A stretch of DNA of 64,000 bases from a phage, in the sequence record PX853108.1; one strand, 5' to 3'. A model generated the notes under the pieces. The model had not been told where the DNA came from. It worked only from the letters and a program-made list of their open reading frames with translations, and made no database searches. This document shows positions 5,159 to 35,227 of this stretch, one piece after another (position 1 is the stretch's first letter; each line of letters starts with the position of its first letter). Made by a program: the position numbers and the translations under genes.

Positions 5159-5869
5159 ATGCAGAAATTATCGGAAGTATATCGTGGCTTGGCACTAAGT
5201 ACCTTGAAGGGTACTGGTGCAGTCACTGATGACAGATTAGGCATTGAACCAGATAGCAAGCCTGAAATATTGGCAGCTATTAATGAAGGGCTGGTACGAC
5301 TACATAGTCGTTTCCCTTTAAGGACTAATAGCTGCATTGTGGAGATGAAGGAAGGTCGTACTGATTATCCCCTTCAATCCAGATATGCTTACTCCAAATT
5401 TATTAAGCCTACTCTTGAGATTCAATACCCATATATCATGGATGGGTTCATGAAACCTTTCCAGGATGATGTCATTAAAATCTTAAATGTGTTTGATAAC
5501 TCAGGGAATCGACGTAGACTGAACGACGATTCAGACCCTCATGCAATCTTTACTCCTCGGCCTGATACTATTCAGTGTATGCGACCTCGACACTTCGAGG
5601 CACTTAACGTAACTTATCAAGCTAAGCACCCTGTACTTACGGGTGATGAAGAACAGGAAGTTGATTTAGCTGATACGCTAATGACGGCACTTCATAACTG
5701 GGTGGGTTATCGTTACCACACTGGTTTGAATACTCCGGAAGCTAATGCTAAGGCAGCAGAGTATCTGCAAACATATGAAAGCATCTGTGGTGAGGTTGTT
5801 GATTACGACCTGGCTAATGGAAGTATTTCAATTACCGAAACTAAATTTGAACAACGAGGATGGCGATGA
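5159..5869 (+). CDS. Virion structural protein (tail-associated by position)
   Basis: 236 aa ORF with RBS GAGGAA; lies between terminase and the tailspike-like genes. Confidence 0.3.
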   Translation: MQKLSEVYRGLALSTLKGTGAVTDDRLGIEPDSKPEILAAINEGLVRLHSRFPLRTNSCIVEMKEGRTDYPLQSRYAYSKFIKPTLEIQYPYIMDGFMKPFQDDVIKILNVFDNSGNRRRLNDDSDPHAIFTPRPDTIQCMRPRHFEALNVTYQAKHPVLTGDEEQEVDLADTLMTALHNWVGYRYHTGLNTPEANAKAAEYLQTYESICGEVVDYDLANGSISITETKFEQRGWR

Positions 5870-8547
5870 ACGCACATACCCCCTTTGATGCAAAACAGGA
5901 TTGGACCAATCCTTACTGCCAAAACAGTTCCAATGACCCAATGGTAGATGCATTACTTGGTAATGCTTACCATGTGGTTCGTACTGTTTACTGTAACTTG
6001 GGTAACCTTAAACTTTTGTATGATTTCCTGAACCAGTATGGAATGGTTCTTGGTGTACAGTCAGAGGCAGAACTTAAAGCATTAACTACTAAAGCTAAGT
6101 ATGCACGTATCTATGGCTTTTCTCGTACAGGTGACCGGCAGGTAACTGACTACCTGTATGTGGAAGGTGATCGTACAGGCATTATCCCTGATGACCCAAA
6201 GGCAACAGGTTCATGGATTACTGTTGCTACTTCTGGTTCCACCGGTGGTGGTACTTCTTCCAGCGAAGGTGCTTACATTCCTTGGGTATACAGCAATGGT
6301 TCCGCTACTGGTGGGGAAACCACAATCAACGTACCAGATGGTACGGTAGGTGTGCCTTTCATTATTGTTAATGGCGACATGCAGTATGTAGGCCGTGGCT
6401 TTGAGTTTAATATTGACAGTCTGTCTGTAACTCTGGCTCAACCTTTAGAAGAAGGGGATGAAGTAGTATTCCTTCTGACAGGAGTGCCTGCTGTACCAGA
6501 TAATCCTAACGTTAATGACTGGGTTCAGATTAACTGGTTATACAACAATGGTGCTGCTGTAGGTGGTGAACAGGTTATTACTATTCCTTACACCTTCCAG
6601 TCTATTCCGGCTGTGTATAAGAATGGACTACGTTTGTATAAAGGATTAACTACTGAGTCCTATACTGCTGACCCAGATAACCAACGTATTTTTCTTACCG
6701 AACCACTGACAACCAATGACCGTCTGATTGTACAGATTGGAGGGGAAACACAGGTACTGGAAACATCAGACCATACTATTCAGGAAGTTGCTCGTGCAGC
6801 TAACGTTAAGGATAGTGAGGTAATTCTTAGTACTGACGTTACTCAATTCTTAAATGGTAAGAAGATTGTTTATTCTGTTAGTGAGCAGAAGGCTTATGGG
6901 TTACCTTCTTTGCCTACCAATGTGTACATTCAATCCGTAGAGAACGGTAAGCTTACATACTCCCCTGGAGCCGTGGAAGTAGATTTAGTTCCTATCCCTG
7001 GTTCCTCTGAAGAATTAAAAAATAGTTTAATATCTGATACTGGGGCTGCCATAGTGAGCACTAGTTCTGGTGCAACTGTACAAGCAGAACTTGATAATAT
7101 TACAGAGAAATTGGGGGACTCTTACCCAAATATAAGAGGTAATATTAATACACCTGCAACTGGGTATGTATTCCAACCATATACCCGCTATTACGGCGAC
7201 CATGACATTCGATACATTGGGGGCGGTAATCCTAAGTCAACTAAGCGATTTAAAAAAGATGGGCATGAAACAATAACTCTTACTGGGATTTCTACGACGG
7301 CATCTAATCCTCCAACCATATCGGTGGATACAGTTGCATATGTAAACCCTGCTAGTGCTGACCCTGATGATAGAACCTTCCCTGCAAGTATTACCTTTAA
7401 CGGCCTAGCCTTTGTAGGTGATGATGATGAGACGGGGGAAGTTGGATTAACCATCCTTCAGGGTCAGAATTTCCAGATTCAAGATTGTGGTTTTAGTAAG
7501 ACTAAACTGGCAACTTGGTTTGTAGATGTATGGATGACCAGTGTGAGTAATTCCACCTTCTTTGGGCAGGTTCGCCATGATGGAGGTACTAGCTGTTTCT
7601 ACACTAACTGTTATGCCACTGTACATGATGCCTCAGTACCACTAGGTGCATACAGAATTTCTAATATTCAGTATGGTAATATGACCTCTTGTGCCTCGGA
7701 TGGGACGATAAATGGTGCTTACTGGTTTAACGGTAATAATGGATTAACAGTTAATAACTGTGGGTCAGAAGTTCCTACCACAATGGACAGGAACTATGGT
7801 ACTGCTGCGCACTTTGAAAAAAGTAATGAGATGGTACTTACCAATTTTTATACTTTACCCGCAGAAGGTACTAACATGCTCATATCAGTAAAAGATGATA
7901 ATGAGTTAGTATTCAATAACATGATGGTATACGGTAGCCCTGATAGATACAGCCGGGATTTCTGGTTTACAGGCACGAACAATAACTTGATTATTAATGG
8001 GGGCATCTTTGGTAATCGAGGAGACTTCCCACGTATTGCCACAGACCATGCAGGAAACACTGTAATTTACAATGCTGTTAATGGTAACTCATACATATGG
8101 AAAACTAAAACAGCGGCCATCACTGCTGTATGGGAACCAAAGTACCTTTCACAGACATTGGATACTACATCTGATGTCGTATTTACGAACAGCGGTCCTG
8201 TAACAGGAGGAACACGAGATATTAAATTCACTAAGAATGGTAATACTGCTACTGTTGAATTTGATATTACTATTCCAAGTGTTTCTGGTGCAGTGGGACA
8301 ACTTCGTATAAATGGTTTGCCTTATGCTGCTGCTCAACAAGCTAGTGGTAGTGTAGCTATAGCCATTGGTTTAGGTACGGGTGTTGGTAATATTTCTTGT
8401 GCCGTTATCAGAAATGGGACTGAGATACTGTTCTATAAATCTACAACAGCAGGCGGTGTATCATCCGCACTTGTGCCATCAGACCTAACCGATGGATGCA
8501 GCCTTCGCGGTAGTATTACCTACTCCTGTGTATCCGATTGGGATTAA
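5860..8547 (+). CDS. Tail fibre / tailspike-like protein with beta-helix-type C-terminal region
   Basis: 895 aa; Gly/Thr/Asn-rich repetitive C-terminal half typical of parallel beta-helix receptor-binding proteins; internal ~70 aa module (nt ~6781-7015) homologous to the N-terminus of the next gene. Alternative start ATG 5866. Confidence 0.45.
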   Translation: MAMNAHTPFDAKQDWTNPYCQNSSNDPMVDALLGNAYHVVRTVYCNLGNLKLLYDFLNQYGMVLGVQSEAELKALTTKAKYARIYGFSRTGDRQVTDYLYVEGDRTGIIPDDPKATGSWITVATSGSTGGGTSSSEGAYIPWVYSNGSATGGETTINVPDGTVGVPFIIVNGDMQYVGRGFEFNIDSLSVTLAQPLEEGDEVVFLLTGVPAVPDNPNVNDWVQINWLYNNGAAVGGEQVITIPYTFQSIPAVYKNGLRLYKGLTTESYTADPDNQRIFLTEPLTTNDRLIVQIGGETQVLETSDHTIQEVARAANVKDSEVILSTDVTQFLNGKKIVYSVSEQKAYGLPSLPTNVYIQSVENGKLTYSPGAVEVDLVPIPGSSEELKNSLISDTGAAIVSTSSGATVQAELDNITEKLGDSYPNIRGNINTPATGYVFQPYTRYYGDHDIRYIGGGNPKSTKRFKKDGHETITLTGISTTASNPPTISVDTVAYVNPASADPDDRTFPASITFNGLAFVGDDDETGEVGLTILQGQNFQIQDCGFSKTKLATWFVDVWMTSVSNSTFFGQVRHDGGTSCFYTNCYATVHDASVPLGAYRISNIQYGNMTSCASDGTINGAYWFNGNNGLTVNNCGSEVPTTMDRNYGTAAHFEKSNEMVLTNFYTLPAEGTNMLISVKDDNELVFNNMMVYGSPDRYSRDFWFTGTNNNLIINGGIFGNRGDFPRIATDHAGNTVIYNAVNGNSYIWKTKTAAITAVWEPKYLSQTLDTTSDVVFTNSGPVTGGTRDIKFTKNGNTATVEFDITIPSVSGAVGQLRINGLPYAAAQQASGSVAIAIGLGTGVGNISCAVIRNGTEILFYKSTTAGGVSSALVPSDLTDGCSLRGSITYSCVSDWD

Positions 8548-8601
8548 TATTTATATAGCCTCCGTAACTGGAGGCTTACTTAGAAAAACAAAGAGGTTGT
8601 T

Positions 8602-10485
8602 ATGAACGAAATGTTCTCACAAGGTGGTAAAGGTTCAACTGGTATTCTTACCAATAAGCAAGCCATTGCCCGTAAGTTTGGTGTTAAGCAGAATGAAGTA
8701 GTCTACTTTTCTGTAGGTGTAGACTTAGGTGGATACAAAGTCATTTATGATAAGACTACTCAACGTGCTTACTCATTGCCCGTACTTCCAGTAGGAACCA
8801 CTGCTGTAAGTCTCAGTGAGCAGGCAGTCCTGGTTCATTCAGCAGGTACAGTTGATTTGGGTGAACTGGCTGCTACACGTAGGGAATTCGTAAGCCTGTC
8901 TGATACGTTTGCTACTGGTTTGGTAGTGAATACTCGAAATGAGATTCTGATGCATGATGGTATAGGTTATACCTATTTAGGTGCTCTACCTGTAACTATT
9001 GCCGCAGGAACTAACCCTGTCGGTAATTCTGACTGGAAGGCTCAGACAGACCCATATTTACGCACAGACTTGGCTAGTTCTGATGTAAACAAAGGCGCAT
9101 CGATTATCAACACTACTTCTGGTTTAAACGTTCAGGAGTCGCTAAACACCCTGAGGTTATCGGCTACCGCGAGTTCTATTTCGGCCAATCTGGCTTTAGG
9201 CTCCGCAAAAGTTATTGACTCCGTATCCAGTGCCGATTCTTTTATCCTCCCATCCTTCGCTACGTTAGAAGGGGGAGATAATTTCTTAACCGGCTTCATA
9301 GGAACCTCATACCAGAAAAACAAAACTATTCGTAAATCAAGTAATACAACTGTTACGTTAACAAACCAAGACCCCAGCGCTGGGAGTCAATCCGTGGACG
9401 CGGTTGTATACCAAGACCCGGCATGGCCAGGTGGCGCTGTATTTCCTCAAAAATCGGCATTAAAGCATATTACTATTGAGGGTAACTCTGCTGCTAACCC
9501 TAGTCAGGCCGGTTTTTTTGTATTACAAGGCGGAGTAGTTGACATTGAGAATGTGGATTTCATCAACTGCACCTATGCGATATGGGCTAAAGATATCTGG
9601 CAAAGCCGCATCTCCAGAGTATTCTCCAACAACGGAAAGATTCGCCTTGATAACGGTACGTCTGTTGTACTAACAGGATGTGGGTTGGCTTCTGCCGATA
9701 CTACAAGAACAGGCGCATTTGATCTTACGGGCATGAAGTATTCAACGCTTATTGGTTGTACATCAGACCATACTACCAATACTGCCTATTCATTCGATGC
9801 TTGTGAAGGAATTGTGCTGGACGCTTGCGGATGTGAGGGGGCCAACACCACAACAGCTAATTCTGGAACGGCTCTGGCTTTTAAAGATAACAATCATAAT
9901 ATAGTGGTCAACGCTTTCACATGTTTCCCGGTAGCTGACCAAGGCCCCGCTTTGATATCATTCGGTAGTAACAACCAGGTAACCCTAAACTCGTTCGAGG
10001 TTATACCAGGAATTACATATAATGGGGACATATACCTTTATGGGGCTAATTCTCATATCACTATAAACGGGGGACGCTTTGGTTCAGACGGCAATGCTAT
10101 GCCTATTGTAACGGCTTCGGCTAATGCCATTGGCTCCACTATAACATATCATCACCGCAGGGGTATTACGTATACATACACAGTAACAGCCGCAGGAATT
10201 GTAACTCCGGTACAACATTTCCGCCCTATTGTGTCTGCTGTTATTAACTCTGATGGTACTGTTAGAAGCGGTTTCGGCGTTAATAATGTAACTAAAAATA
10301 GCACAGGTTCTTACACTATTAATTTCACTAGTGAGATTGCCACGGGATATGCGATCCAACATTTATCCTCATTTGGATTTGTGCAGGTGAGCGTTTTCGA
10401 CTCAACAACACTAACGGTATTATTCCTTGACCCAAGCAAAACACCAACTGATACGGACTTCTCGGTTAATATAGCTGGCTGGTAA
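8602..10485 (+). CDS. Tailspike-like protein, pectate-lyase-like beta-helix (putative depolymerase)
   Basis: 627 aa; RBS AAGAGG; N-terminal module (nt ~8665-8866) shared with gene 5860-8547; Asn/Cys-rich repeats (ITIEGNSAA...VDIENVDFINCTYAIWAK...) suggest a right-handed beta-helix. Confidence 0.45.
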   Translation: MNEMFSQGGKGSTGILTNKQAIARKFGVKQNEVVYFSVGVDLGGYKVIYDKTTQRAYSLPVLPVGTTAVSLSEQAVLVHSAGTVDLGELAATRREFVSLSDTFATGLVVNTRNEILMHDGIGYTYLGALPVTIAAGTNPVGNSDWKAQTDPYLRTDLASSDVNKGASIINTTSGLNVQESLNTLRLSATASSISANLALGSAKVIDSVSSADSFILPSFATLEGGDNFLTGFIGTSYQKNKTIRKSSNTTVTLTNQDPSAGSQSVDAVVYQDPAWPGGAVFPQKSALKHITIEGNSAANPSQAGFFVLQGGVVDIENVDFINCTYAIWAKDIWQSRISRVFSNNGKIRLDNGTSVVLTGCGLASADTTRTGAFDLTGMKYSTLIGCTSDHTTNTAYSFDACEGIVLDACGCEGANTTTANSGTALAFKDNNHNIVVNAFTCFPVADQGPALISFGSNNQVTLNSFEVIPGITYNGDIYLYGANSHITINGGRFGSDGNAMPIVTASANAIGSTITYHHRRGITYTYTVTAAGIVTPVQHFRPIVSAVINSDGTVRSGFGVNNVTKNSTGSYTINFTSEIATGYAIQHLSSFGFVQVSVFDSTTLTVLFLDPSKTPTDTDFSVNIAGW

Positions 10486-10490
10486 AACTA

Positions 10491-10515
10491 AGGCCCCAAA
10501 GGGGGCCTTTCTTGT
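10491..10515 (+). terminator. Intrinsic terminator after the tailspike gene
   Basis: Stem AGGCCCC/GGGGCCT with AAAG loop followed by TTTCTTGT, 6 nt after the stop codon. Confidence 0.6.
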
Positions 10516-10741
10516 ATAGAGTTTACTGTTTGCATTACCCTAATAGATACTGCTGTTAGGGTGATTACTTGTCCGGATATGTTAAACATATCTAGCTGAA
10601 TACCATCCACCATGAATGGGTCTGTTGAACCAAGTGTGTATGTAGCTAATACATTGTCTCTGTTAGCAATGTCCGTACCTTGTACCTTAACACTAACATC
10701 TGAACATACTACTGTAGTTCCATTGGTTCATCTTGTTTGTG

Positions 10742-10777
10742 TTGCCATTCCCTTACCGTGCCAGCACTTCTTATAAT
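10742..10777 (+). promoter_or_regulatory. Candidate late promoter (perfect -10 TATAAT, no convincing -35)
   Basis: TATAAT at 10772-10777 in a ~380 bp ORF-free gap about 115 nt upstream of the lysis cassette; a missing -35 fits N4-type late promoters, which depend on the phage SSB. Confidence 0.2.
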
Positions 10778-10892
10778 AGTTCCTAGGGCAGACACTATGT
10801 CTGGATGTACCTCATCATACTAAGTATTATCTAATGGTCATCTTATGATATGACCCTATTGGGGTTCCTAACTACACAACTACGGTAATATT

Positions 10893-24410: not shown

Positions 24411-24472
24411 TAACTGGCTTACTGTAGAGTAAGTTACCTATATACGATATAAGTTTGAATAGGAAACATGCT

Positions 24473-27400
24473 ATGTCAACATTTGACCGTCTGGCAGGTT
24501 TCGCAGACAGCATCACTAATGCTAAGCAAGTCGATGTCTCTACTGCAACCTCCCGGAAGCAAGCTGCACAGGGGCAAAGCCCTTTCCAATTAACCCCAGA
24601 TAATGCTTACAATCTACAGACTGGACGAGTAGGTAATCTTGGAATCGGTGCATACGAACCAGGTTCACTTCAGGCAGATTTCACTCAAGCCTCCCCCTTA
24701 GAAATCATTAATAAATATGGTAATGAGCAAGGTCTACAGATTCTTAATAGTCGAGCTAATGCTGCTGATGCTGTACGTCAGGACTTATCTAAACAACGTA
24801 CTAACGCAGAAGCATTTGGCGATATCCTTTCTGGTGTTGGTCTTGGTGTTGCTAATACCCTTGGGGGCATTGCTGCTCTTGGCACAGGCTTGGTCAATGA
24901 TAATGCCGGGGCATCCATTGCTTCCGGTCTTGACTGGTTGAATAAAGGTGTACACAACCTACAGTCCGATGCACTGAATGCTCGCCGTAATGTAGTACAG
25001 AACCAGAACGTAATATCTGCACAGGAAAATGAGAAACTCTATAAGCAAGATATTGCTAAAGGAGAAAGCGAACTCGTTGCTTCCCTGTCTCGCATTGGTC
25101 GTGATGCTTACGATTCTGTTGCTAATACCCTGTCTAACGGCATGGCTGCTACTGATGGTATTGCTGAAGGTGTAGGTTCTCTGTTTACTGGTGGCCCATT
25201 AATCCGTGGTGTATCTGCACTCGGTAAGGTAATGGTAGGTGGAGATAAAGCTGTTAAGGGTATTACCTTAGCTGCTGAGTTAGGTTCACGTCCTGCACGG
25301 ATTGCACAGTCTGCTGGTCGTGTTGCTGCACCTGCTATAGCAATTGGTGGTATGGAAGCTGGTGGTGCATACCAACAGACTGCTAATGAAATTATGGAAA
25401 TGCCATTCAGTGAACTGGCTGCTAAATCTCCAGTATACCAACAGCATATTAAAGATGGTTTATCTCCTGAAGAAGCACGTCGTCAGACTGCATCTGAAAC
25501 AGGTATTACTGCTGCTGGCTTAACTGCTCCAGTTGCTGCTCTTACTGGTCCACTGGTATCCAAGTTTGAACTTAACCCACTCAAGGTAGGTTCACTGGCT
25601 GGTGCTGGTTCTAACATGCTGCGTGAGACTGTAGAAGAAGGTATCCAGTCTGGTACAAGTCAGTTCGCACAAAACACTGCAATCAAGGAAAATGTTGATG
25701 CATCTCGTGACATCCTCAAAGGTGTAGGCGAACAAACTGGTCTTGGTGCATTGTATGGCTTTGGTTCTGCTGGGGTTGCTCAAGCTCCTGGTGCAACTGT
25801 TAAGGCTGCTGGTGCTGCCGTTGGTCCTGCTGTACGTACTACCCTGGCTGGTGCTTCTTTGGCTGGTAAGGCACTAGCAAAAGTAGCCTCCCCTATTACT
25901 AACATCCTGGTTCAGCGTGGTGAAGAAGTAGCTAAACGTAACGAACAGGCATCTCCTGTATCTGATGCTACGGTTAATGCTGCTGCACAGGAAGCTACTG
26001 CTCAGGCAGAACAGGCCCAGGCAACCGTACAGGAAGCAGTAGATGCAATGGATATTTCTCCAGAAGAGAAAGCTGCTGCTACCCAGTATGCTGCTGACTT
26101 AACTCAGGTAATGAAGTTTGATCCAGTAGAACTGGAACAAGCTAGCCCTACAGTCCGTGAAGCTGTTTCTGGTTCCACTAACCGTGTTGAAGCTATTCAG
26201 AAGATGGCTGACCTGGTTAATACTGCCGAAGACCCTAACGTTCAAATGGAAGCTGCAATCCAGATGTACGACAACATCATGTCTATGGATAGCTTCATTA
26301 ACCGTGACCCAGGTGCTCTGGCTAATCTGGAACAAGGCTCTCCTGCTGCTAATATCGTTGACCAATTCTCTGGCCTGATGGCTAACGTTCAGAATACACC
26401 GAAAGTACTTCGTGCATTCCGTGCTATTCATTCCATGATTCAGGAACAGGCAGAAGCAGGTAAACTGAAAGCTACTGAAGAAGCTAACCAAGCCCAGGCA
26501 AACAATATTGCCATGGCTGCTGATATGTCTCCAGAAGTACTGGATGCAGATTCAGTAAACATGGTTCTGAAACATGCAAGTGAAGGTAAGATTACACTGG
26601 GGAATCGTCAGCGTGCTGCCCTGCAATCTGCTGCTGCCTTGTTACAGGGTGCACGAGAATTTGACGCTAAAGCAGAAGAACTAGGCTTACGTCCTCAAGA
26701 CATTGTTAGTAAACAGATTAAAACCGACGAGTCTCGTTCTAATGAAGGCCAGTACTCTGCGTTGCAACATGCTAAACGCATTCGTTCTGCGTACAACTCT
26801 GGTAACTTCGATTTGGCTTCCGCTTATCTCGACGACTTTATGAAGTTCGCCCAGCACATGCAGAATAAGGTCGGAGCGTTGAATGAGCATCTGATTTCTG
26901 GGAATGCGGATAAGAATAAGTCTGTCCATTATCAGGCTCTTACTCCCTCCCGTGAATGGGTACGTAGTCGTACTGGCCTCGGTGTCAATCCGTATGATAC
27001 CAAGTCTGTTAAGTTTGCCCAGCAAGTAGGACTGGAAGCCAAGACCGTAGCTGATATTGCTAACGCACTTGCTACGGCTTACCCGGAGCTTAATGTTTCT
27101 CATGTTAAGGTTACCCCATTGGATTCCCGTTTGGACAAGCCTGCTGCCCAAGTAGTTAAAGAGTTCCGTCAGGGCAATCTTGATGCTGCTCAATCCCAAC
27201 AGACCAATGAACCAGTGAATCAGGTTGATGAATCTCCTGTTACAAAACAGGAACCAGTTACCCCTACTGTACAGACTAAACCCTCTGTTAGTGAAGCTGT
27301 TAAAACAGAACCTACTATTAAAGAGTCTAAACCACAGACTGCAAAAGAACCTGAGAACCAGTCTGAAAAACAGGATGCTGTTGAACAGCCTACTGAATCT

Positions 27401-30400
27401 GAAAGGGATGCTTATGTAAAAGAGAATACTATTTCTCAAGAAACTCTTAATAAGTATGGTGACCGTAGGGAGAGTCCTTGGCTATTTGCTGATGGTACTG
27501 TTGTTGGTTCCAATGGTGACCATATCAGCCTGTCTGATGTATTTGGTCATGATGGTTATCGTGACATGTCTTTGGATACTGGTGCTGTACGTTCTACTTT
27601 CTACAAAGGAAGTGAGCAACCGTTCGTATCCCTGCAATTGTTTGATAATCAGAAGCTAACTGCTGAACAATTCAATACTGTTCAATCATTCGTAGAAGCA
27701 AACAATGCACTGATTCAGATTGGTGTAGATACATCTGGGCTTAATACCAATAACGTTGAGAAAGAAGAAGTATCACTGGCTCAACTGAAAGCAGACTATA
27801 CCGTTGGTGGTAAACCCCTATCTCAAATGGAAACAGTGTTCCCTGTCTATAACAATGAAAAGACATCGAACCAGTTCCTTAAAGCATTTTCTCTACCAGA
27901 GGAGCCTAAGTCTCGTACCATTGGTTCTGAATCTCCTTTGACTGATGTTAAGAAAGCACTGTCTTCTGCTGCCCGCTTTGAAGCATTCACTCAAAAAGAA
28001 AATAACGCACTCACGAGTGATGTGATTAAGCGTTACCAGGATTTGTTTGATTTTGGTGAAACTTTGAAGACCACTCTGTCTGACCGTCTGGCTAAGTTCC
28101 TTGCTAACAAGAACGTTGGTAAACGTTTTGCAGAAGGTACTGAGGCTAACCGTTGGGTGGGTGGTAAGTTACTTAACATCGTAGAGAAAGATGGTGATAC
28201 CTTTAAGTTCAACGACCAGTTGTTAGAGACTGCTGTACTTGCAGGTTTGCAATGGCGACTAACTGCTACACAGAATGCTGCTGTTAAAGACATGAAAGAC
28301 GTAGCTGCTATTACTGGTGTGGAAGCATCTCTGCTACCAGAAGGTATCCTCGCAGAGTTTGAGAATGCTCAAACCTTAGTAGAGGCTACTAACTCACTGG
28401 CTCAGAAGATTGAATCCTATTGGGGGCTTAATCGTAATGCTGATGCACCATTGGGTTATACCAAGGGTATCCCAATGGCAATGGCTACAGAGATTCTGTC
28501 TTCTCTCATTGAGATGGGTGAAGTTAAAGAGTCCATGCTGGATGTGTCTGAGATTGACCCAGAATCTAATAAGACCGTTGGTTTGTATACCATTGAGAAG
28601 TTAGATGATAACGATGCCATTAATAAATTCCCTACTGCTATTGAGGAAGCAGTCCTTCTAGAACCAGTAGAGAAATTGTACTTGGGTGATGATATTCCTT
28701 CAGTGGCTCAAACTCAGTTACGTAACCCGGCTGTCAAGAATACCCCGGAACAGAAAGCTGCTCTTAAAGCAGAACAGGCTACTGAGTTCCGTGTACACAT
28801 GCCCATGGTTAACTTCTATGAAGCATTGGGTCGTGACAACATTCTGGAATTGATGGGTGCTGGTGCTCTTAACCCAGAATTGCTGAATGTGAATACTGCT
28901 AAATCTCTGGAAGGTAAAAACCTGTCCGTGTCTATGGCATATGATTCCTTGTTTGGTGTTATCAATCAGATTAAGGAACAGGAGAATGGACTGGATACAC
29001 CTATTCACTATGGTTACAACATGACCCGTGTAGGTCGTATGCAGATGCTTGGTAAAAATAACCCACAATCCAGTAAGCTGGTCCGTGAAGCAATCTTACC
29101 AACCTTCTCTACCATCGACTTGAGCAATGAAAACAGTCAAACGTTCTCCGATTTCCAGTTAGGTCTGGCTCAGGCATTGGGCATCAAAGTTCATAAAATG
29201 TCTCGCGAAGTTATGTCAGATGAACTGACTAAAGCTCTGGAAGGTAAACTGAAACCTGCCGTTGATATGATGGTTGAGTTTGATAAGTCTGGACACTTAC
29301 CTACTGATGCAGTGGATATTCTGAAGACCTCTTTGGGTAATGATAAATCATTTGTAGCTCTCATGGCTCTTATGGAATATGCCCGTTACCTTAACAGTGA
29401 TGACCGTGCCAACTTTAATACCCCACTGTACGTTGAAGCTGATGGTGTAACCAACGGACCAATCAACGCAATGGTATTAATGACTGGTGGTAAGTTCACC
29501 CCAGACTGGATTAAGAATACTGCTAAAGGTGGCTTGTTCTTCGGTAAAGCTGGCAAGACTATGAACGAGCATCATTCGCACGAGGACAGTGTTGACCTGT
29601 ATGAAGCATCCACTAATGGTCTGCAACAAGCACTGAATGAATTACGTAGTACTTACCGTAACAACGTTCCTGTTATGAACCAGATGAACCATCTCCAGAA
29701 ATTAATGGACCTGTTCATTAAAGATTTCAATCTTAAGGAAGATGGTACTCTGGACCTGAAACGTGGTATTGCGAAAAACCCACTGACCATTACCATTTAT
29801 GGTTCTGGTGCTCGTGGTATTGCTGGCAAGATGGTTAGTGCAATTACTGATACCATCTACGAACGCTTCAGTGACGTTCTACAAGCTCGTGCTGCTGACC
29901 CTAGCATTTCACCAGCTATGGCTATGTTTGGTAAGGAGGCTGCGTCTGAGGCTGATGCTCAGGCTATGCTGGATACTTTCCTTACTTCTATGGAAGCATT
30001 GACTGGCAATGTTCCGGTTATGCGTAAAGGTGAGTTGTCTATTCAGCAGGTAGAAGGTGCTCTGACCGGTAAATTAGACCCTCAGAAGTTTACTGTATCA
30101 GGCAATGCTCTGAAGAATTTACAAGAGAACATGCTTCACTTGTTCGTTGAACCAATGCGTACTGGTATCCGAAATACTGTTGGCGAAGGTTTGATGTACT
30201 CTACTGAGAATTTGCAGAAGGCTACCCAGATTCAGTCTCTGGTATTGCAGGATATGTTCCAACAGGCAGTACAGGCTAAGCTGGCAGAAAAAGAAAAAGA
30301 CCCAACATGGAAGAAAGGTGATTTCTTAACACAGAAAGAACTGAATGAAATCCAGAATAGCTTAGCTCCACTGGCTCCAATGATTGAGACTGGTTCACAG

Positions 30401-33400
30401 ACTTTCTACATTGCTGGTAGTGAGAATACTGATGTTGCTAACCAAGTATTGGCTACTAACTTAGATGACCGTATGCGTGTACCAATGAGCATCTATGCTC
30501 CTTCACAGGCAGGCGTTGCAGGTATTCCGTTTATGACCATCGGTACTGGTGATGGCATGATGATGCAGACCCTTTCTACTATGAAAGGTGCTCCGAAGAA
30601 TACCCTGAAAATCTTTGATGGTATGAACATTGGTATCAACGATATCACCGATGCAAGCCGTAAAGCTAATGAGGCTGTATATACTTCCTGGCAGGGTAAC
30701 CCTATCAAGAATGTTTATGATTCCTTTGCTAAGTTCATGAAGAATGTAGACTTCAGTAAACTGTCTGATGAAACCAAACAGGCTATCGCTAAGTCTGCTC
30801 TGGAGTATGACCAGCGTGAGGGTGCTACCGATGACCTGTTACGTGTTGGTGCTGAACAGATTGAACGTAACCTGCGTAACATTGCTTTGGGTGTAGATAT
30901 TCGTCACAAGGTAATGGACCAGGTACAGGTCACCGTTGACCAGATGGCTGCTGTTGGTGCTCCTTACGTGAACAACGGTAAAATCTCTCTGGAAGGTCTG
31001 ACTGTAGACCAGCAAGTAGCTAAGCTGAACGAACTGTTTGATGCTGAATTAAACAAACGTCGTGATGCAGTTCGTGCTGCTAAAGCAGAACCAGTGAAAG
31101 AAGTACCGGCTATGGAGAAGGTTGGTCGTGTACTGAAGTCTGGTGTACGTCTGTTGTCTAATACTGCCATTACTAAGCTGGCTAAAGAGATGTCTCCTGA
31201 ACAGCAAGCAGTATTGAAAGAAATACAGAAATCCCTCGCTGCTAAAGACTATAAGGTTGTTTACGGTACACCTGCTCAACTGGATGCTTATGCTATTGAG
31301 AAGAATATTACTCGCCCAGCACCGGAAGATATTGAAGCTGCTGAAGCTGGTAATGCATATGGCTGGACTAACTTTGAAGATAAGACCATCTACTTAGTTA
31401 CCCCTTCCTTAGAGACTCTGGTTCATGAATTGGTACATGCTACTACTTTTGAATCTGTACTGGCTCATTATGAGGGTACTCCTAATGAAGCAGTACAGAA
31501 TATTGAAGACCTGATGAACCAGTTCCTTACTCTGGATGTTAAGGATGAATCTCCGGCTGTACGTGAAGCGTATGCCGATGCACTGAATACCATTAATGGT
31601 CATTTGTCTAATGGCTTCATTGAACCCGCAATGGCTAAAGCTGCTGCATTGAACGAGTACATGGCTTGGGGTTTAACCAACCGTGAACTGATTAGCAAGC
31701 AGAAGAAAACTACTGCACTTAAAACTATGGTTCAGGCTGTATATGAAGCAATCAAACGTCTGGTATTTGGACGTAAGAAAGCTCCAGCTAATGCAGATGA
31801 TATGTTCTCTGGCTTACTGTTTAACTCTGCTGTAGTAATGCGTGGGCAAGCTCCTACTGCTGCTGTAGCTAAAGACACTACTCTGTTCCATAACAAAGCA
31901 TATGGTGACAATACTCGTCTGGAAGAGTTAGGTAAGACCTTTGATAAACTGATTACTGACTACATTGGTTCAGAACCAGTACAGCAAGTAATTCGTAAAG
32001 GTAAATTCTCTGATGCAGTAGTGAATGCAACTAAAGTAACCCGTGATGTTCAGGCTCATGGCTTCACCATGAATATGCAGGAACAACGCCTCTTCACTAA
32101 CATTGTTGCTGCATTGGCTACTGAGGCTGCTATTAACCCTGCTGCTCTTGCTCGTGCACAGGAATACTACACGCATGTTACTAAAAACCTGACTGTTGAA
32201 GCATTTATGGCTGACCCTGATAGTACTAACCCTGCTGACCGTTATTATGCACAGCAGAAGTTCGATACTATCATGGGTGCTAACAACATTGAGTTTGATG
32301 CACAAGGTCGTTCTTCCTTACTGCCTACCTTTGTTGGTCTGGCTATGGTAAGTGAAGAAGTACGTAAGGTTCTGGCTGATATTCCTGTTATGAAAGCAGA
32401 TAAGAAATCAGGCAATACTGTTGACGCAATGCTGACTAACATTGGTACTGCTGCAATGGCTAGCCTGAATGCTCGTGTAGCAGGTGATACTAAAGCCACT
32501 AACGTACAGGAAGGTATGGATGCACTGGCTCAGACAATCATGCAGACCAGTCTTAATGCAGAATCCTTCTATGATTCCGTTGCTACCCCTACTGGTAATG
32601 CTATCGACCGTGCTAACCAGTATCTGGTGGATTCTATTGATGTACTGTCTACCCGTGCTTTGGAAGGTGCTCGTGAAGTTGCAGCTAATACCAAGAACCC
32701 GTTGGTTAAAGGTGCTGCTCATGCTGCACAATTGGTAGCTGCTATTGCTACAGAGAAGAATGGTGCAATCGTAGCCGAAGGTGTTATGGCTGCAATGAAC
32801 CAGGGTAAAGTATGGCAACCCTTCCATGACCTGGTTAATGACATAATCGGACGTACTAAGAGCAATGCTTCTGTATACGATTTGATTAAAGCAGTTCGTG
32901 CACAGGTACAGGCTGACCGTCAACAGTTCCGTGAACACTTGCCTACCACTATCGCATCCAAGTTCAGCCGTAAGCTGACTAATGATGAGTGGAAAGCAAT
33001 GCATACAGGTATGGGTAAAACTGACTTAGCTGTTCTGCGTGACACTATGTCTCTGGATGAAATCCGTGACCTGCTGTCTGACCAAAAGATTGTTGACCGT
33101 GAGGTTAATAAACTGGAAGCAGATTTGCAGAAACAAGCAGGACGTAACTGGCCTCTGATTAGTCGTAAATCTAAGCAACTGGCTCAGTACATGATTAATG
33201 GTACGGTTGGTAATAACCTGTTGCGTAATGCTACTGCAATTTCTCGTTTACTGGGTGAACGTAAGACTACACGTTCTGTTGTAGATGTAGCTCAACTGGA
33301 TAAACTCATTACCCTGTATGCACTGGAAGCAATGAATAAAACTGACCGTGAGATGTTATCTTCACTGGCTCAGACAGAAATTGAAGGTATGGACTTTGCT

Positions 33401-35227
33401 ACTTCTTACCTGGTTGGTCAGCGTAAAGATGAAATGGCTAAAGCTAAGTCTGATAGTCGTGCAACCCTGAACCAGTACAAAGGGTATATTCCTGGTGAGA
33501 ACAAACAGGGTGTTAACCTGATTGTTGCTGAAGATAGTCAGTTTGCTGATTTGATTGAGAAATCCTATGTACGACTGGGTACTTATCAGGGTAGCTCTGC
33601 TAATCGTGGTCCAGCACGTAGTTACTACTTTGCACCGGTACAGGCACAGGCTCCATTCTCACAAGGTATCCTACAGAACGTTCGCAATACTGCTGGTGGC
33701 GTAGACCTTGGCACAGGCTTTACGATGGGAACCATGGTAGCTGGTCGTATTACTGACAAGCCTTCTGTAGACCGTATCACTAAAGCACTGGCTCGTGGTG
33801 AACGCGGTAATGAACCACTGCTGCCTGTATATGATGCCAATGGTAATGTGGTTGCTTACGAGCAATCCATTGACCCTAACATGCTGAAGCACATCGAAGG
33901 TGAGAACCATCTTGCTCGTGCAATTGGTGTATGGCGTGGTCGTCAGGTGGAAGAAGCTAAGGCTCAGCGTTTCAACGATATGCTGATTGAGAACCTGCAT
34001 AGCATGTACGAGAACGACATTAAGATGTCTGCTTCTAATAAGTCCCAGTACGTTAACCTTCTTGGTTCGAAACTGGACCCAGTAACTGCCGATGCTCTTA
34101 AACTGATGAACAGTGAAACTCGTCAGAAAGCAGAAAGTCTGTTTGGACCGGGTGAGTTGTGGGTACGTCGTGACATGCTCAACGATGCACTGGGTTATCG
34201 TGCAGCTTCTGTTGGTGATGCCTGGTCTGGTAATTCTCGTTGGTCCCCAGAAACACTAGATACCTTCAAGAAAGCTATGCTGGGTGTCTTTGGAAACCGT
34301 GCTTATAAGTACGTAATGGGTGGTGAGAATCTGGTTCAAAACTTAGTTAAAGAAGCCAAGACTCTGATTGTAGTTAAGTCAGTAGTCGTACCTGCTGTTA
34401 ACTTCCTGGCTAACCTTTACCAGATGGTTGCTCGTGGTGTACCTGTTAAGAACATTGCTAAGAGCATCCCACAGAAAACTGCTGAGATTAATCAGTATCT
34501 GAAATCTCGCCTGCGTCAGGTAGATGCAGAAGCAGAATTACGTGCAGCTACTAACCCTAACCAGATTCGTAAGCTGAAGGCTGAGATTCAGTCCATCACG
34601 GATAGCCATAAGCGTTTGAGTATCTGGCCTCTGTTAGAAGCTGGTGAGTTTTCTTCAATTGCAGATGCTGGTATTGGACGTGATGACATCCTGATTACTG
34701 AAGGTAAACTTCACGAATACATGGAAAAGCTGGCTGATAAGTTGCCTAAGTCTGTACGTAATGCTGGTCGTTATGCACTTATCACTAAGGATACTGCTCT
34801 CTTCCAGGGTATCCAGAAGACGGTTGAGTACTCTGACTTTATTGCTAAAGCAATCATCTATGATGAACTGACTCAGCGTAAAGGTAAGACCCGAGAAGAA
34901 GCACTCGGACGTGTAACGGAAGAGTTCATTAACTATGACCGTTTGCCTGGCCGTTTCCGTGGGTATATGGAAAGTGTTGGTCTGATGTGGTTCTACAACT
35001 TTAAGATTCGTTCTGCAAAAGTTGCAGTGTCCATGATTCGTAACAACCCAGTACATGCTGCTATGGCTATGTTGGCTCCAACTCCTACCATGTTTGGTAA
35101 CGTTGGTCTGCCTATTAAGGACAACATCTTTAGTATTGCTGCACAGGGCAACCTCGGTTACTCCTTCGGATTCGGTATGGGCTTACGTGCCCATACCCTG
35201 AACCCGTGGCTCAACCTCACTAACTAA
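24473..35227 (+). CDS. Virion-encapsidated RNA polymerase (N4 gp50-like giant vRNAP)
   Basis: ORF 24455-35227 begins at TTG; first ATG with RBS AGGAAA is 24473 (~3,584 aa). Central region has T7-like motif A (ADGVTNG, nt ~29423), motif B (RGIAKNPLTITIYG, nt ~29762) and motif C (IFDGMNIG, nt ~30611). Confidence 0.85.
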   Translation: MSTFDRLAGFADSITNAKQVDVSTATSRKQAAQGQSPFQLTPDNAYNLQTGRVGNLGIGAYEPGSLQADFTQASPLEIINKYGNEQGLQILNSRANAADAVRQDLSKQRTNAEAFGDILSGVGLGVANTLGGIAALGTGLVNDNAGASIASGLDWLNKGVHNLQSDALNARRNVVQNQNVISAQENEKLYKQDIAKGESELVASLSRIGRDAYDSVANTLSNGMAATDGIAEGVGSLFTGGPLIRGVSALGKVMVGGDKAVKGITLAAELGSRPARIAQSAGRVAAPAIAIGGMEAGGAYQQTANEIMEMPFSELAAKSPVYQQHIKDGLSPEEARRQTASETGITAAGLTAPVAALTGPLVSKFELNPLKVGSLAGAGSNMLRETVEEGIQSGTSQFAQNTAIKENVDASRDILKGVGEQTGLGALYGFGSAGVAQAPGATVKAAGAAVGPAVRTTLAGASLAGKALAKVASPITNILVQRGEEVAKRNEQASPVSDATVNAAAQEATAQAEQAQATVQEAVDAMDISPEEKAAATQYAADLTQVMKFDPVELEQASPTVREAVSGSTNRVEAIQKMADLVNTAEDPNVQMEAAIQMYDNIMSMDSFINRDPGALANLEQGSPAANIVDQFSGLMANVQNTPKVLRAFRAIHSMIQEQAEAGKLKATEEANQAQANNIAMAADMSPEVLDADSVNMVLKHASEGKITLGNRQRAALQSAAALLQGAREFDAKAEELGLRPQDIVSKQIKTDESRSNEGQYSALQHAKRIRSAYNSGNFDLASAYLDDFMKFAQHMQNKVGALNEHLISGNADKNKSVHYQALTPSREWVRSRTGLGVNPYDTKSVKFAQQVGLEAKTVADIANALATAYPELNVSHVKVTPLDSRLDKPAAQVVKEFRQGNLDAAQSQQTNEPVNQVDESPVTKQEPVTPTVQTKPSVSEAVKTEPTIKESKPQTAKEPENQSEKQDAVEQPTESERDAYVKENTISQETLNKYGDRRESPWLFADGTVVGSNGDHISLSDVFGHDGYRDMSLDTGAVRSTFYKGSEQPFVSLQLFDNQKLTAEQFNTVQSFVEANNALIQIGVDTSGLNTNNVEKEEVSLAQLKADYTVGGKPLSQMETVFPVYNNEKTSNQFLKAFSLPEEPKSRTIGSESPLTDVKKALSSAARFEAFTQKENNALTSDVIKRYQDLFDFGETLKTTLSDRLAKFLANKNVGKRFAEGTEANRWVGGKLLNIVEKDGDTFKFNDQLLETAVLAGLQWRLTATQNAAVKDMKDVAAITGVEASLLPEGILAEFENAQTLVEATNSLAQKIESYWGLNRNADAPLGYTKGIPMAMATEILSSLIEMGEVKESMLDVSEIDPESNKTVGLYTIEKLDDNDAINKFPTAIEEAVLLEPVEKLYLGDDIPSVAQTQLRNPAVKNTPEQKAALKAEQATEFRVHMPMVNFYEALGRDNILELMGAGALNPELLNVNTAKSLEGKNLSVSMAYDSLFGVINQIKEQENGLDTPIHYGYNMTRVGRMQMLGKNNPQSSKLVREAILPTFSTIDLSNENSQTFSDFQLGLAQALGIKVHKMSREVMSDELTKALEGKLKPAVDMMVEFDKSGHLPTDAVDILKTSLGNDKSFVALMALMEYARYLNSDDRANFNTPLYVEADGVTNGPINAMVLMTGGKFTPDWIKNTAKGGLFFGKAGKTMNEHHSHEDSVDLYEASTNGLQQALNELRSTYRNNVPVMNQMNHLQKLMDLFIKDFNLKEDGTLDLKRGIAKNPLTITIYGSGARGIAGKMVSAITDTIYERFSDVLQARAADPSISPAMAMFGKEAASEADAQAMLDTFLTSMEALTGNVPVMRKGELSIQQVEGALTGKLDPQKFTVSGNALKNLQENMLHLFVEPMRTGIRNTVGEGLMYSTENLQKATQIQSLVLQDMFQQAVQAKLAEKEKDPTWKKGDFLTQKELNEIQNSLAPLAPMIETGSQTFYIAGSENTDVANQVLATNLDDRMRVPMSIYAPSQAGVAGIPFMTIGTGDGMMMQTLSTMKGAPKNTLKIFDGMNIGINDITDASRKANEAVYTSWQGNPIKNVYDSFAKFMKNVDFSKLSDETKQAIAKSALEYDQREGATDDLLRVGAEQIERNLRNIALGVDIRHKVMDQVQVTVDQMAAVGAPYVNNGKISLEGLTVDQQVAKLNELFDAELNKRRDAVRAAKAEPVKEVPAMEKVGRVLKSGVRLLSNTAITKLAKEMSPEQQAVLKEIQKSLAAKDYKVVYGTPAQLDAYAIEKNITRPAPEDIEAAEAGNAYGWTNFEDKTIYLVTPSLETLVHELVHATTFESVLAHYEGTPNEAVQNIEDLMNQFLTLDVKDESPAVREAYADALNTINGHLSNGFIEPAMAKAAALNEYMAWGLTNRELISKQKKTTALKTMVQAVYEAIKRLVFGRKKAPANADDMFSGLLFNSAVVMRGQAPTAAVAKDTTLFHNKAYGDNTRLEELGKTFDKLITDYIGSEPVQQVIRKGKFSDAVVNATKVTRDVQAHGFTMNMQEQRLFTNIVAALATEAAINPAALARAQEYYTHVTKNLTVEAFMADPDSTNPADRYYAQQKFDTIMGANNIEFDAQGRSSLLPTFVGLAMVSEEVRKVLADIPVMKADKKSGNTVDAMLTNIGTAAMASLNARVAGDTKATNVQEGMDALAQTIMQTSLNAESFYDSVATPTGNAIDRANQYLVDSIDVLSTRALEGAREVAANTKNPLVKGAAHAAQLVAAIATEKNGAIVAEGVMAAMNQGKVWQPFHDLVNDIIGRTKSNASVYDLIKAVRAQVQADRQQFREHLPTTIASKFSRKLTNDEWKAMHTGMGKTDLAVLRDTMSLDEIRDLLSDQKIVDREVNKLEADLQKQAGRNWPLISRKSKQLAQYMINGTVGNNLLRNATAISRLLGERKTTRSVVDVAQLDKLITLYALEAMNKTDREMLSSLAQTEIEGMDFATSYLVGQRKDEMAKAKSDSRATLNQYKGYIPGENKQGVNLIVAEDSQFADLIEKSYVRLGTYQGSSANRGPARSYYFAPVQAQAPFSQGILQNVRNTAGGVDLGTGFTMGTMVAGRITDKPSVDRITKALARGERGNEPLLPVYDANGNVVAYEQSIDPNMLKHIEGENHLARAIGVWRGRQVEEAKAQRFNDMLIENLHSMYENDIKMSASNKSQYVNLLGSKLDPVTADALKLMNSETRQKAESLFGPGELWVRRDMLNDALGYRAASVGDAWSGNSRWSPETLDTFKKAMLGVFGNRAYKYVMGGENLVQNLVKEAKTLIVVKSVVVPAVNFLANLYQMVARGVPVKNIAKSIPQKTAEINQYLKSRLRQVDAEAELRAATNPNQIRKLKAEIQSITDSHKRLSIWPLLEAGEFSSIADAGIGRDDILITEGKLHEYMEKLADKLPKSVRNAGRYALITKDTALFQGIQKTVEYSDFIAKAIIYDELTQRKGKTREEALGRVTEEFINYDRLPGRFRGYMESVGLMWFYNFKIRSAKVAVSMIRNNPVHAAMAMLAPTPTMFGNVGLPIKDNIFSIAAQGNLGYSFGFGMGLRAHTLNPWLNLTN

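Follow-up and report, generated by a model that had tools for sequence, protein, structure and literature searches.

The window analysed here is the whole 64,000-nucleotide stretch of phage DNA in record PX853108.1. Two neighbouring genes in it encode tailspike proteins: gene A (5860..8547), a gp66-type anchored tailspike of 895 amino acids (aa) as an open reading frame (ORF), recognized from the ORF list and from PDB and PHROG matches, and gene B (8602..10485), a gp63.1/TSP1-type tailspike of 627 aa, taken from the ORF list and preceded by the ribosome-binding site AAAGAGG at 8590-8596. Coordinates are window positions, and all features mapped below lie on the plus (+) strand. We propose, with a probability of about 0.88, that A and B form the two-branched host-recognition appendage of a G7C-like coliphage, in which B docks with its head (domains D1 and D2) on XD3 of A. 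The present analysis establishes directly which regions are homologous, in what order the domains stand, to which fold class the spike bodies belong, where the junctions lie and that the bodies assort independently.

The proposal starts from a module of about 70 aa that the original prediction had noticed in both proteins, internally in A and N-terminally in B. The two ORFs are as described there, the region singled out (6781..8866) running from residue 308 of A to residue 88 of B, and the alignment is real. In BLASTP, A308-397 and B20-104 are 36% identical (E=2e-7). A Smith-Waterman comparison of the module regions scores 95, against 26.8 +/- 5.0 and a maximum of 54 for shuffled sequences (n=5000), giving a Gumbel p=1.2e-8. 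When family profile is compared with family profile by hhalign, A306-381 pairs with B18-93 at a probability of 99.1% (E=8e-19). Detection is also reciprocal: with the A module as query, 84 B-type homologues are hit at their N-terminus (31-47% identity), and the B module hits 117 of 120 A-type homologues at position ~300 (30-49% identity). A similarity due to chance or composition could be argued from a single pairwise comparison with 36% identity over ~70-90 residues. This explanation, to which we give practically no credence, is already refuted by the shuffle value (p~1e-8), by the reciprocal detection in ~200 homologues, by the hhalign result and by the fact that both copies fall on solved D1 domains. 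An extension of the homology upstream of D1, through a 'Q(x)GG' motif found both where XD3 ends and in the N-terminal peptide of B, was considered and rejected, the hhalign alignment starting at B18/A306.

Homologue-built profiles were run on the six-frame translation of the window. D1 was found in A and B alone, and XD was found twice, both times in A; D2 was confined to B and the anchor to A. The same order, one anchor-XD-XD-D1 protein followed by one D1-D2 protein, recurs in Escherichia phage Bp4 and in three metagenomic or SRA contigs.

Published structures identify the module. The heads of these spikes consist of D1 and D2 in TSP1, TSP3 and TSP4 of phage CBA120, and of D1 alone in TSP2 (PMC7506556, PMC8825819); the D1 of TSP2, residues 169-244, has the same fold as the D1 of TSP1, TSP3, TSP4 and gp63.1 (PMC7506556). 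Since A 304-378 aligns to the D1 segment of TSP2, and B 18-88 corresponds to the first half of the head in TSP1 and gp63.1, the ~70-aa module common to A and B is, as judged from sequence, the published D1 head domain. This domain has been solved in CBA120 TSP1-4, in G7C gp63.1 and in gp48/gp49 of phage B2. The secondary structure of both D1 models comprises, in the same order, one helix, six short strands and the neck helix, with a pLDDT of 82-91 in B and ~55-66 in A.

A D1 profile made from the two sequences was also searched against 1.84 billion cluster representatives, yielding 335 proteins at E<=1e-3 and 264 at E<=1e-10. Among the best 150 of these 335 proteins, the start position of D1 falls into four discrete classes: 10-23 (67 proteins; TSP1/TSP3/gp63.1 architecture), ~137-189 (22; TSP2 architecture), ~285-305 (58; gp66 architecture) and ~340 (3; TSP4 architecture). 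A D1 that varies in this way between N-terminal and internal positions has been described for the family before. Pfam and NCBIfam lack models that pick up D1, XD2, XD3 or the anchor in A or B, and automated annotation will therefore overlook the branched architecture.

Protein A has the layout anchor-XD2-XD3-D1-neck-beta-helix-C-terminal domain, that is, a gp66-like N-terminus and a TSP2-like head lacking D2; the D2 profile, run on the six-frame window, has no match in A and finds B alone. The virion-binding anchor (aa ~3-124; 5866..6231) matches its profile at E=1.5e-76, and no other ORF of the six-frame window does so. It is followed by two T4 gp10-like jellyroll copies, XD2 (aa ~140-208; 6277..6483; XD profile i-E=2.4e-11, with matches to 7rej, 6w4q and 7xy1) and XD3 (aa ~220-296; 6517..6747; i-E=2.8e-48), the latter being the putative socket for the head of B. 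These two copies form a tandem repeat with 31% identity (E=2e-11); the relation of XD domains to T4 gp10 is taken from PMC8825819. The internal D1 copy (aa ~304-378; 6769..6993), found with the D1 profile, aligns to residues ~171-245 of TSP2 (6w4q). Next come a helical neck (aa ~383-420; 7006..7119; model helices 383-391, 395-398 and 407-420), where homologues diverge, and a right-handed beta-helix body (aa ~460-760; 7237..8139), which is putatively glycan-degrading and was assigned from the model, Foldseek and homology to the body of B. The C-terminal beta-sandwich (aa ~765-895; 8152..8544), all-beta with a pLDDT of ~80-89, lies outside the A/B alignment.

The PDB sequence search supports this order. 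Moo19 gp82, a 'tail fiber' (9d80_D), matches A 1-410 (E=6e-156), and B2 Gp49 (9d83_D, also 9d84) matches A 16-380 (E=2e-138). CBA120 TSP2 (6w4q) matches A 139-400 (E=8e-31), the N-terminal fragment TSP4-N of CBA120 TSP4 (7rej) matches A 91-210, and the Kp9 fibre (7xy1) matches A 137-204. Protein A further matches phrog_12242, a tail protein, at E=4e-282, and its N-terminal block is common to 120/120 homologues. Residues 3-79 (5866-6100) are similar to the N-terminus of the N4 '60 kDa protein' (9lc0_A; E=8e-5), and the N-terminal ~75 residues also match phrog_29955, an 'appendage'; the tail-attachment peptide of A thus appears from sequence to be common with N4 itself, and the remainder of the protein differs. 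The real start of A is probably ATG 5866 and not ATG 5860, giving a product of 893 aa, because GAGG lies 6 nt upstream, the start overlaps the stop codon of the preceding adaptor gene as ATGA, M3 is invariant and homologues are 893 aa long. The ATGA overlap also suggests translational coupling.

Protein B consists of a peptide (aa 1-17), an alpha/beta D1, a beta D2, a neck, a long beta-helix and a C-terminal domain, and neither the anchor nor the XD profile matches it. The N-terminal peptide (8602..8652) is strictly conserved and specific to B-type proteins, with the consensus MNExFSQGGKGSTGILT across 44 homologues. It is disordered over 1-16 in the monomer model (pLDDT <50 for the peptide) and lies outside the A/B profile-profile alignment. 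D1 (aa ~18-88; 8653..8865) is matched by its profile over aa 20-87 and modelled at a pLDDT of 82-91. D2 (aa ~93-150; 8878..9051), absent from A, is found by the D2 profile in B alone (i-E=1.4e-31). Pfam PF18668 Tail_spike_N, in full 'Tail spike TSP1/Gp66 receptor binding N-terminal domain', matches weakly at aa 93-139 (8878-9018; E=0.015) and so covers D2, not D1. The helical neck (aa ~153-197; 9058..9192; model helices 153-158, 165-169, 177-184 and 190-197) is a recombination junction, discussed below. The right-handed beta-helix body (aa ~200-530; 9199..10191) is indicated by a model pLDDT mostly >85, by Foldseek and by a weak Pfam Beta_helix match, and the C-terminal beta domain (aa ~536-627; 10207..10482) is all-beta, with a pLDDT of 83-91. 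In the PDB sequence search, B 1-163 matches CBA120 TSP1 (4oj5) at E=3e-55 and B2 Gp48 (9d84_A) at E=2e-54, and the head (aa 1-158) matches G7C gp63.1 (4qnl) at E=2e-53; TSP3 and TSP4 were also matched.

The way in which the two proteins may be assembled follows from work on their homologues. In G7C, gp66 is attached to the particle by its N-terminal domain, and gp63.1, making no contact with the particle itself, binds to gp66 (PMC6872550). This binding requires XD3 of gp66, XD2 being dispensable, and in CBA120 the head D1 of TSP1 binds XD3 of TSP4 (PMC8825819). For Shigella phage B2, gp48 and gp49 co-purify, their complex has been solved by cryo-EM, both proteins were detected in virions by mass spectrometry, and an in situ model places residues 10-74 of the anchored protein on the tail, beside the adaptor (PMC11654681). 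The two spikes of G7C are likewise reported to occur in virions. The features of a G7C-type system are matched here by sequence, namely a gp66-type particle-binding N-terminus, a tandem XD2-XD3 and an anchor-less short receptor-binding protein (RBP) with a D1-D2 head. Because the corresponding parts of the homologues are all present and conserved, A is expected to bind the tail by its anchor and B to plug into XD3. Protein A would form a homotrimer held at the tail adaptor/portal region by aa ~3-124, and the free face of its XD3 trimer would serve as the socket into which B, having no virion anchor, would insert its head in trans. Each appendage would then carry two beta-helix enzymatic spikes, with the D1 of A placed in cis after XD3, as the same fold atop A's own spike.

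The claim of a dual or branched tailspike system is therefore upheld, the type being that of G7C gp66/gp63.1 and the CBA120 TSPs (PMC8825819, PMC6872550, PMC11654681). The accompanying description of the repeat as a shared docking module needs qualification: the module is a hallmark of branched systems, but by homology it would dock B only, on XD3 of A. In A it would not serve for docking, because A is expected to attach via a separate N-terminal anchor and its D1 is the head that follows XD2-XD3, as in TSP2 and TSP4.

Two other arrangements were weighed against this docking of B on A. In the first, both A and B would use the module to dock on a third, adaptor protein, in the manner of K1-5/SP6 or through a common socket. 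The module is indeed common to both proteins, an adaptor-only A-type protein exists (B2 gp49, 410 aa), and a small adaptor gene lies directly upstream of A. However, A has an anchor of its own, whose counterpart in homologues is bound to the tail in situ (PMC11654681), and the module of A is internal, after 300 residues that include XD2-XD3. The six-frame window holds no further XD-bearing protein, and the socket in G7C and CBA120 is XD3 of the anchored spike (PMC8825819). We hence regard a third adaptor as very improbable.

In the second arrangement, D1 of A would make a cis contact with XD2, which otherwise has no partner, or with a neighbouring trimer, and both spikes would be held by equivalent D1-XD contacts. 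This would fit the lack of a known role for gp66 XD2 (PMC8825819), the retention of D1 by the body-less, adaptor-only B2 gp49, and the absence of a third D1 protein from the window and from four related loci. Nevertheless, TSP4-N335, which lacks D1, still forms all complexes (PMC8825819), the N-terminal 168 residues of TSP2 are disordered beside an ordered D1 (PMC7506556), and the linker between XD3 and D1 is just ~8-10 residues long, so that such a cis contact seems quite unlikely. In phage Bp4, whose gp66-like protein is just 600 aa long, the gp66-like and gp63.1-like genes are separated by an extra small 'tail fiber' gene of 304 aa (orf12; 5809-6723 of the Bp4 sequence). No counterpart of orf12 is present in the window. 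The profile search found no D1 in orf12, which therefore gives no support for a third D1 partner on XD2.

Several points weigh against the proposal. Trans docking, virion attachment and enzymatic activity are all carried over from homologues. The part of B that would contact XD3 could be D1 or peptide 1-17, both being candidates, and trans docking on XD3 may in fact depend on the peptide and not on D1. The model of A is poor, with a pLDDT <50 over residues 1-151, ~55-66 in D1 and low values before ~510, for which reason the XD and D1 folds of A rest on sequence homology to solved structures. Finally, whole-chain Foldseek TM-scores are low (0.2-0.4), because domain orientation is arbitrary in monomer models. 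A Foldseek match of A to a 69-residue Gp49 chain (9d84_B; 68% identity) was dropped as a pointer to the docking domain, as gp49 shows the same identity, ~70%, to XD2 and to XD3.

Beyond the heads, both proteins had been predicted to be beta-helix tailspikes, and this is what the models indicate. The AlphaFold model of B (pLDDT 86) retrieves, from the PDB by Foldseek, TSP3, TSP1, TSP4, gp48 and gp63.1, then AS12, Sf6, Dettilon and KP32gp38, the matches to TSP1-4, AS12, Sf6, Dettilon and KP32gp38 having a probability of 1.00. The model of A reaches a pLDDT of 70-95 from aa ~510 on, and its well-modelled body has the TSP2, Dettilon and AS12 tailspikes as top matches, also with a probability of 1.00. 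Both bodies are thus beta-helices and not esterases by Foldseek. An esterase-type (SGNH) body as in gp63.1, gp48 and gp82 was rejected, homology to 4qnl, 9d84_A and 9d80_D ending at the head/neck. Sharing between A and B is not limited to the ~70-aa module that had been noticed, since BLASTP also aligns A393-754 with B163-533 at 29% identity (E=3e-34). Between the aligned blocks, B aa 89-162 (~75 residues) have no counterpart in A.

Four acidic residues are invariant in 37 non-redundant homologues, namely (B/A) D266/D490, D389/D614, E412/E637 and D476/D700, and in the same set D331/D556 is nearly invariant. The invariant residues are candidate catalytic residues. Given that they are kept in both proteins, and that catalysis in the CBA120 spikes is by carboxylate pairs (PMC7506556), A and B are probably active glycan-cleaving enzymes; by analogy they would be depolymerases of polysaccharide (O-antigen or capsule) with different specificities. 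The two distinct activities that had been predicted would most likely be two specificities within one enzyme family, because the bodies are paralogous, with 29% identity and the same invariant Asp/Glu residues. We consider it unlikely that the substrates of the paralogous bodies are chemical variants, two in number, of a single surface glycan, e.g. differently substituted or phase-variable forms of one O-antigen or capsule. If they were, the pair would make adsorption robust to receptor modification and would not widen the host range to unrelated serotypes.

Comparison with homologues places the junctions at which bodies are exchanged. For A, the conserved N-terminal block stops at aa 360-439 in 111 of 120 homologues; for B, the conserved block stops at aa 140-199 in 64 of 83; both stops lie at the necks. 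Pfam domains of many kinds occur C-terminally in A-type homologues: pectate-lyase-like, endosialidase, SGNH, GDPD and peptidase S74. For the body of B (9082-10482), protein identity is 87% with a 'lateral tail fiber' of phage PaulScherrer (Vequintavirinae; 150 kb) and 57% with a protein of vB_EcoS siphophages (44 kb); in other contigs this body is joined to P22 head-binding (PF09008) or T7 tail-fibre (PF03906) N-termini. The receptor-binding body of B thus circulates among four tail architectures, its family spanning N4-like podophages, rV5-like myophages, siphophages and P22-like or T7-like N-terminal contexts.

The body of A (7000-8547) is seldom found in phage isolates, its best match in the phage collection being 42% identical (phages E20 and F22), and a 97% copy is present in two European Nucleotide Archive (ENA) metagenome contigs. 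Beside this copy stands a B-type spike with an unrelated body (PF27114), homology ending at aa 161. Conversely, a 96% copy of B, on a 72.5-kb SRA-derived contig, follows an A-type gene with an unrelated body, homology ending at ~aa 385-430. From these sequence pairings, the bodies of A and B are swapped independently, and the pairing seen here is one combination and not a conserved couple.

These data also bear on the possibility that the likeness of A and B stems from a recent duplication within the genome, whereby A would be an adaptor joined to a copy of B and the module a by-product instead of an ancient assembly domain. Such a history would account for the collinearity of the homology, which takes in D1 and the whole beta-helix. 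Against it, the D1 domains of A and B are as far apart (31-36% identity) as those of A-type and B-type proteins are throughout the family (30-49%, ~200 homologues), and the bodies are just 29% identical. Moreover, the 97% copy of A and the 96% copy of B are each paired with unrelated partner bodies, so the bodies arrived independently, and a Vequintavirinae fibre shares 87% identity with the body of B. We find a recent duplication highly unlikely. In the exchange that we favour, a constant chassis, anchor-XD2-XD3-D1 in A and peptide-D1-D2 in B, would be kept, with the bodies replaced by recombination at the neck. The domain map gives the exact junctions, aa ~380-440 in A and aa ~140-200 in B, at which bodies recombine onto this assembly chassis. 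Its practical use lies in annotation and engineering, since such junctions serve to retarget phages.

The two genes are separated by a spacer of 54 nt, which holds a hairpin and the ribosome-binding site of B. The hairpin (AGCCUCC-GUAACU-GGAGGCU; 8557..8576) has a GC-rich stem of 7 bp, no T tail and a minimum free energy of -13.8 kcal/mol. Its stability is not significant when compared with shuffled sequences (z=-1.7), and for this reason no function is claimed for it. In the G7C set, a terminator-like stem-loop between genes 66 and 63.1 has been proposed as a recombination landmark (bioRxiv 10.1101/542787). The A-B unit is closed by an intrinsic terminator-like site after B (10490..10519; hairpin 10490-10509), with an 8-bp stem that includes 6 GC pairs and a T-rich tail. 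About 370 bp past this terminator (10486-10892) hold no convincing ORF. Bp4 (orf14) and the two ENA contigs with the 97% copy of A have, in the same gap, a reverse-strand hypothetical gene of ~208-217 aa. This gene seems to be absent from the window and is probably also absent from one related contig (L002), where no reverse-strand gene was called in the gap after B.

The genomic setting is that of an N4-like phage. Escherichia phages PD205, PE007, PD38 and Bp4 have 93-94% nucleotide identity to the window over 24 kb, and Bp4 is classified in Schitoviridae, Enquatrovirinae, Gamaleyavirus; on these sequence grounds, the window is most of the genome of a G7C-like, N4-type coliphage of Gamaleyavirus. 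Upstream of A lie a gp70-like gene, the large terminase gene and the head-to-tail adaptor gene, and B is followed by genes for a holin, an endolysin, spanin-like proteins, the portal and the capsid protein. Hence A and B are neighbours between the adaptor/terminase and lysis/portal genes, which matches the N4-like layout. The adaptor gene (N4 gp68-like; 5159..5869), assigned by PDB sequence search and Pfam, matches Moo19 Gp83 (9d80_B) at E=2.5e-108, the B2 adaptor Gp50 (9d83_B) at E=2.9e-32 and Pfam SU10_adaptor at E=1.3e-5. In homologous virions, the adaptor is the tail component beside A's anchor. A 3590-aa ORF (24455..35227) with a TTG start corresponds by size and position to an N4-type virion RNA polymerase, which fits Schitoviridae.

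Taken together, the locus is a new allele of a well-described system, as earlier publications and solved structures cover its branched architecture, the fold of D1 and the logic of docking. With the architecture and D1 solved, the finding raises no new question. The refinements to the first reading are, on the sequence evidence, that the module would dock B only, that A lacks D2 and that the bodies are paralogous. The locus also documents, in the body of B, one body family that is shared by very different phages.

Among known systems, a likeness of principle exists to the Klebsiella, E. coli and Salmonella podophages KP32, KP34, K1-5 and SP6. In these, too, the first RBP or an adaptor bears a T4-gp10-like branching domain, and a second RBP docks by a conserved N-terminus. 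However, their second RBPs dock by short peptides (7-29 aa), while B is expected, by analogy with its homologues, to use a folded D1-D2 head, and their anchors are T7 gp17-like, unlike that of A. Except for the XD of Kp9 (7xy1), no sequence relation of A or B to the KP32, KP34, K1-5 and SP6 systems was found. A system of the K1-5/SP6 type, in which a separate body-less adaptor carries RBPs that dock by peptides of 7-11 aa, was rejected, as A has a body and B would dock by its folded head.

In CBA120, a Kuttervirus, the XD2-XD3-D1 segment of TSP2 (6W4Q) aligns with A 139-400, and both proteins have D1 and no D2; the head of TSP1 (4OJ5) is ~75% identical to B 1-163. D1 is N-terminal in TSP1 and TSP3 (6NW9) and internal in TSP2 and TSP4, which is the pattern of B and A. 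CBA120 is, however, a myovirus with four spikes, unlike the present phage with two spikes and one XD2-XD3 pair, and its baseplate anchor (AD-XD1 of TSP4) is unrelated to the anchor of A.

In Shigella phage B2, the adaptor gp49 and the tailspike gp48 (9D83/9D84) resemble A and the head of B, respectively. B2 gp49 ends after D1 and has no body, whereas A carries one. The bodies of B2 gp48 and of Moo19 gp82 (9D80) are esterases, in contrast to the beta-helix bodies of A and B, and in Moo19 gp82 everything is fused in one chain, where two proteins are present here.

The gp66/gp63.1 pair of G7C (Prokhorov et al. 2017, cited after PMC6872550 and PMC8825819; gp63.1 structure, 4QNL) belongs to the same genus and its genes are likewise adjacent, A having the gp66 layout and B the gp63.1 head. 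The body of gp63.1 has an esterase fold, unlike the beta-helix of B, and homology of B to 4QNL ends at aa ~158. The bodies of A and B are, moreover, paralogous to each other, and both are different alleles from those of G7C. The two systems nevertheless share a stem-loop between the genes, and in both the short spike is expected to dock 1:1 on XD3 of its longer partner.

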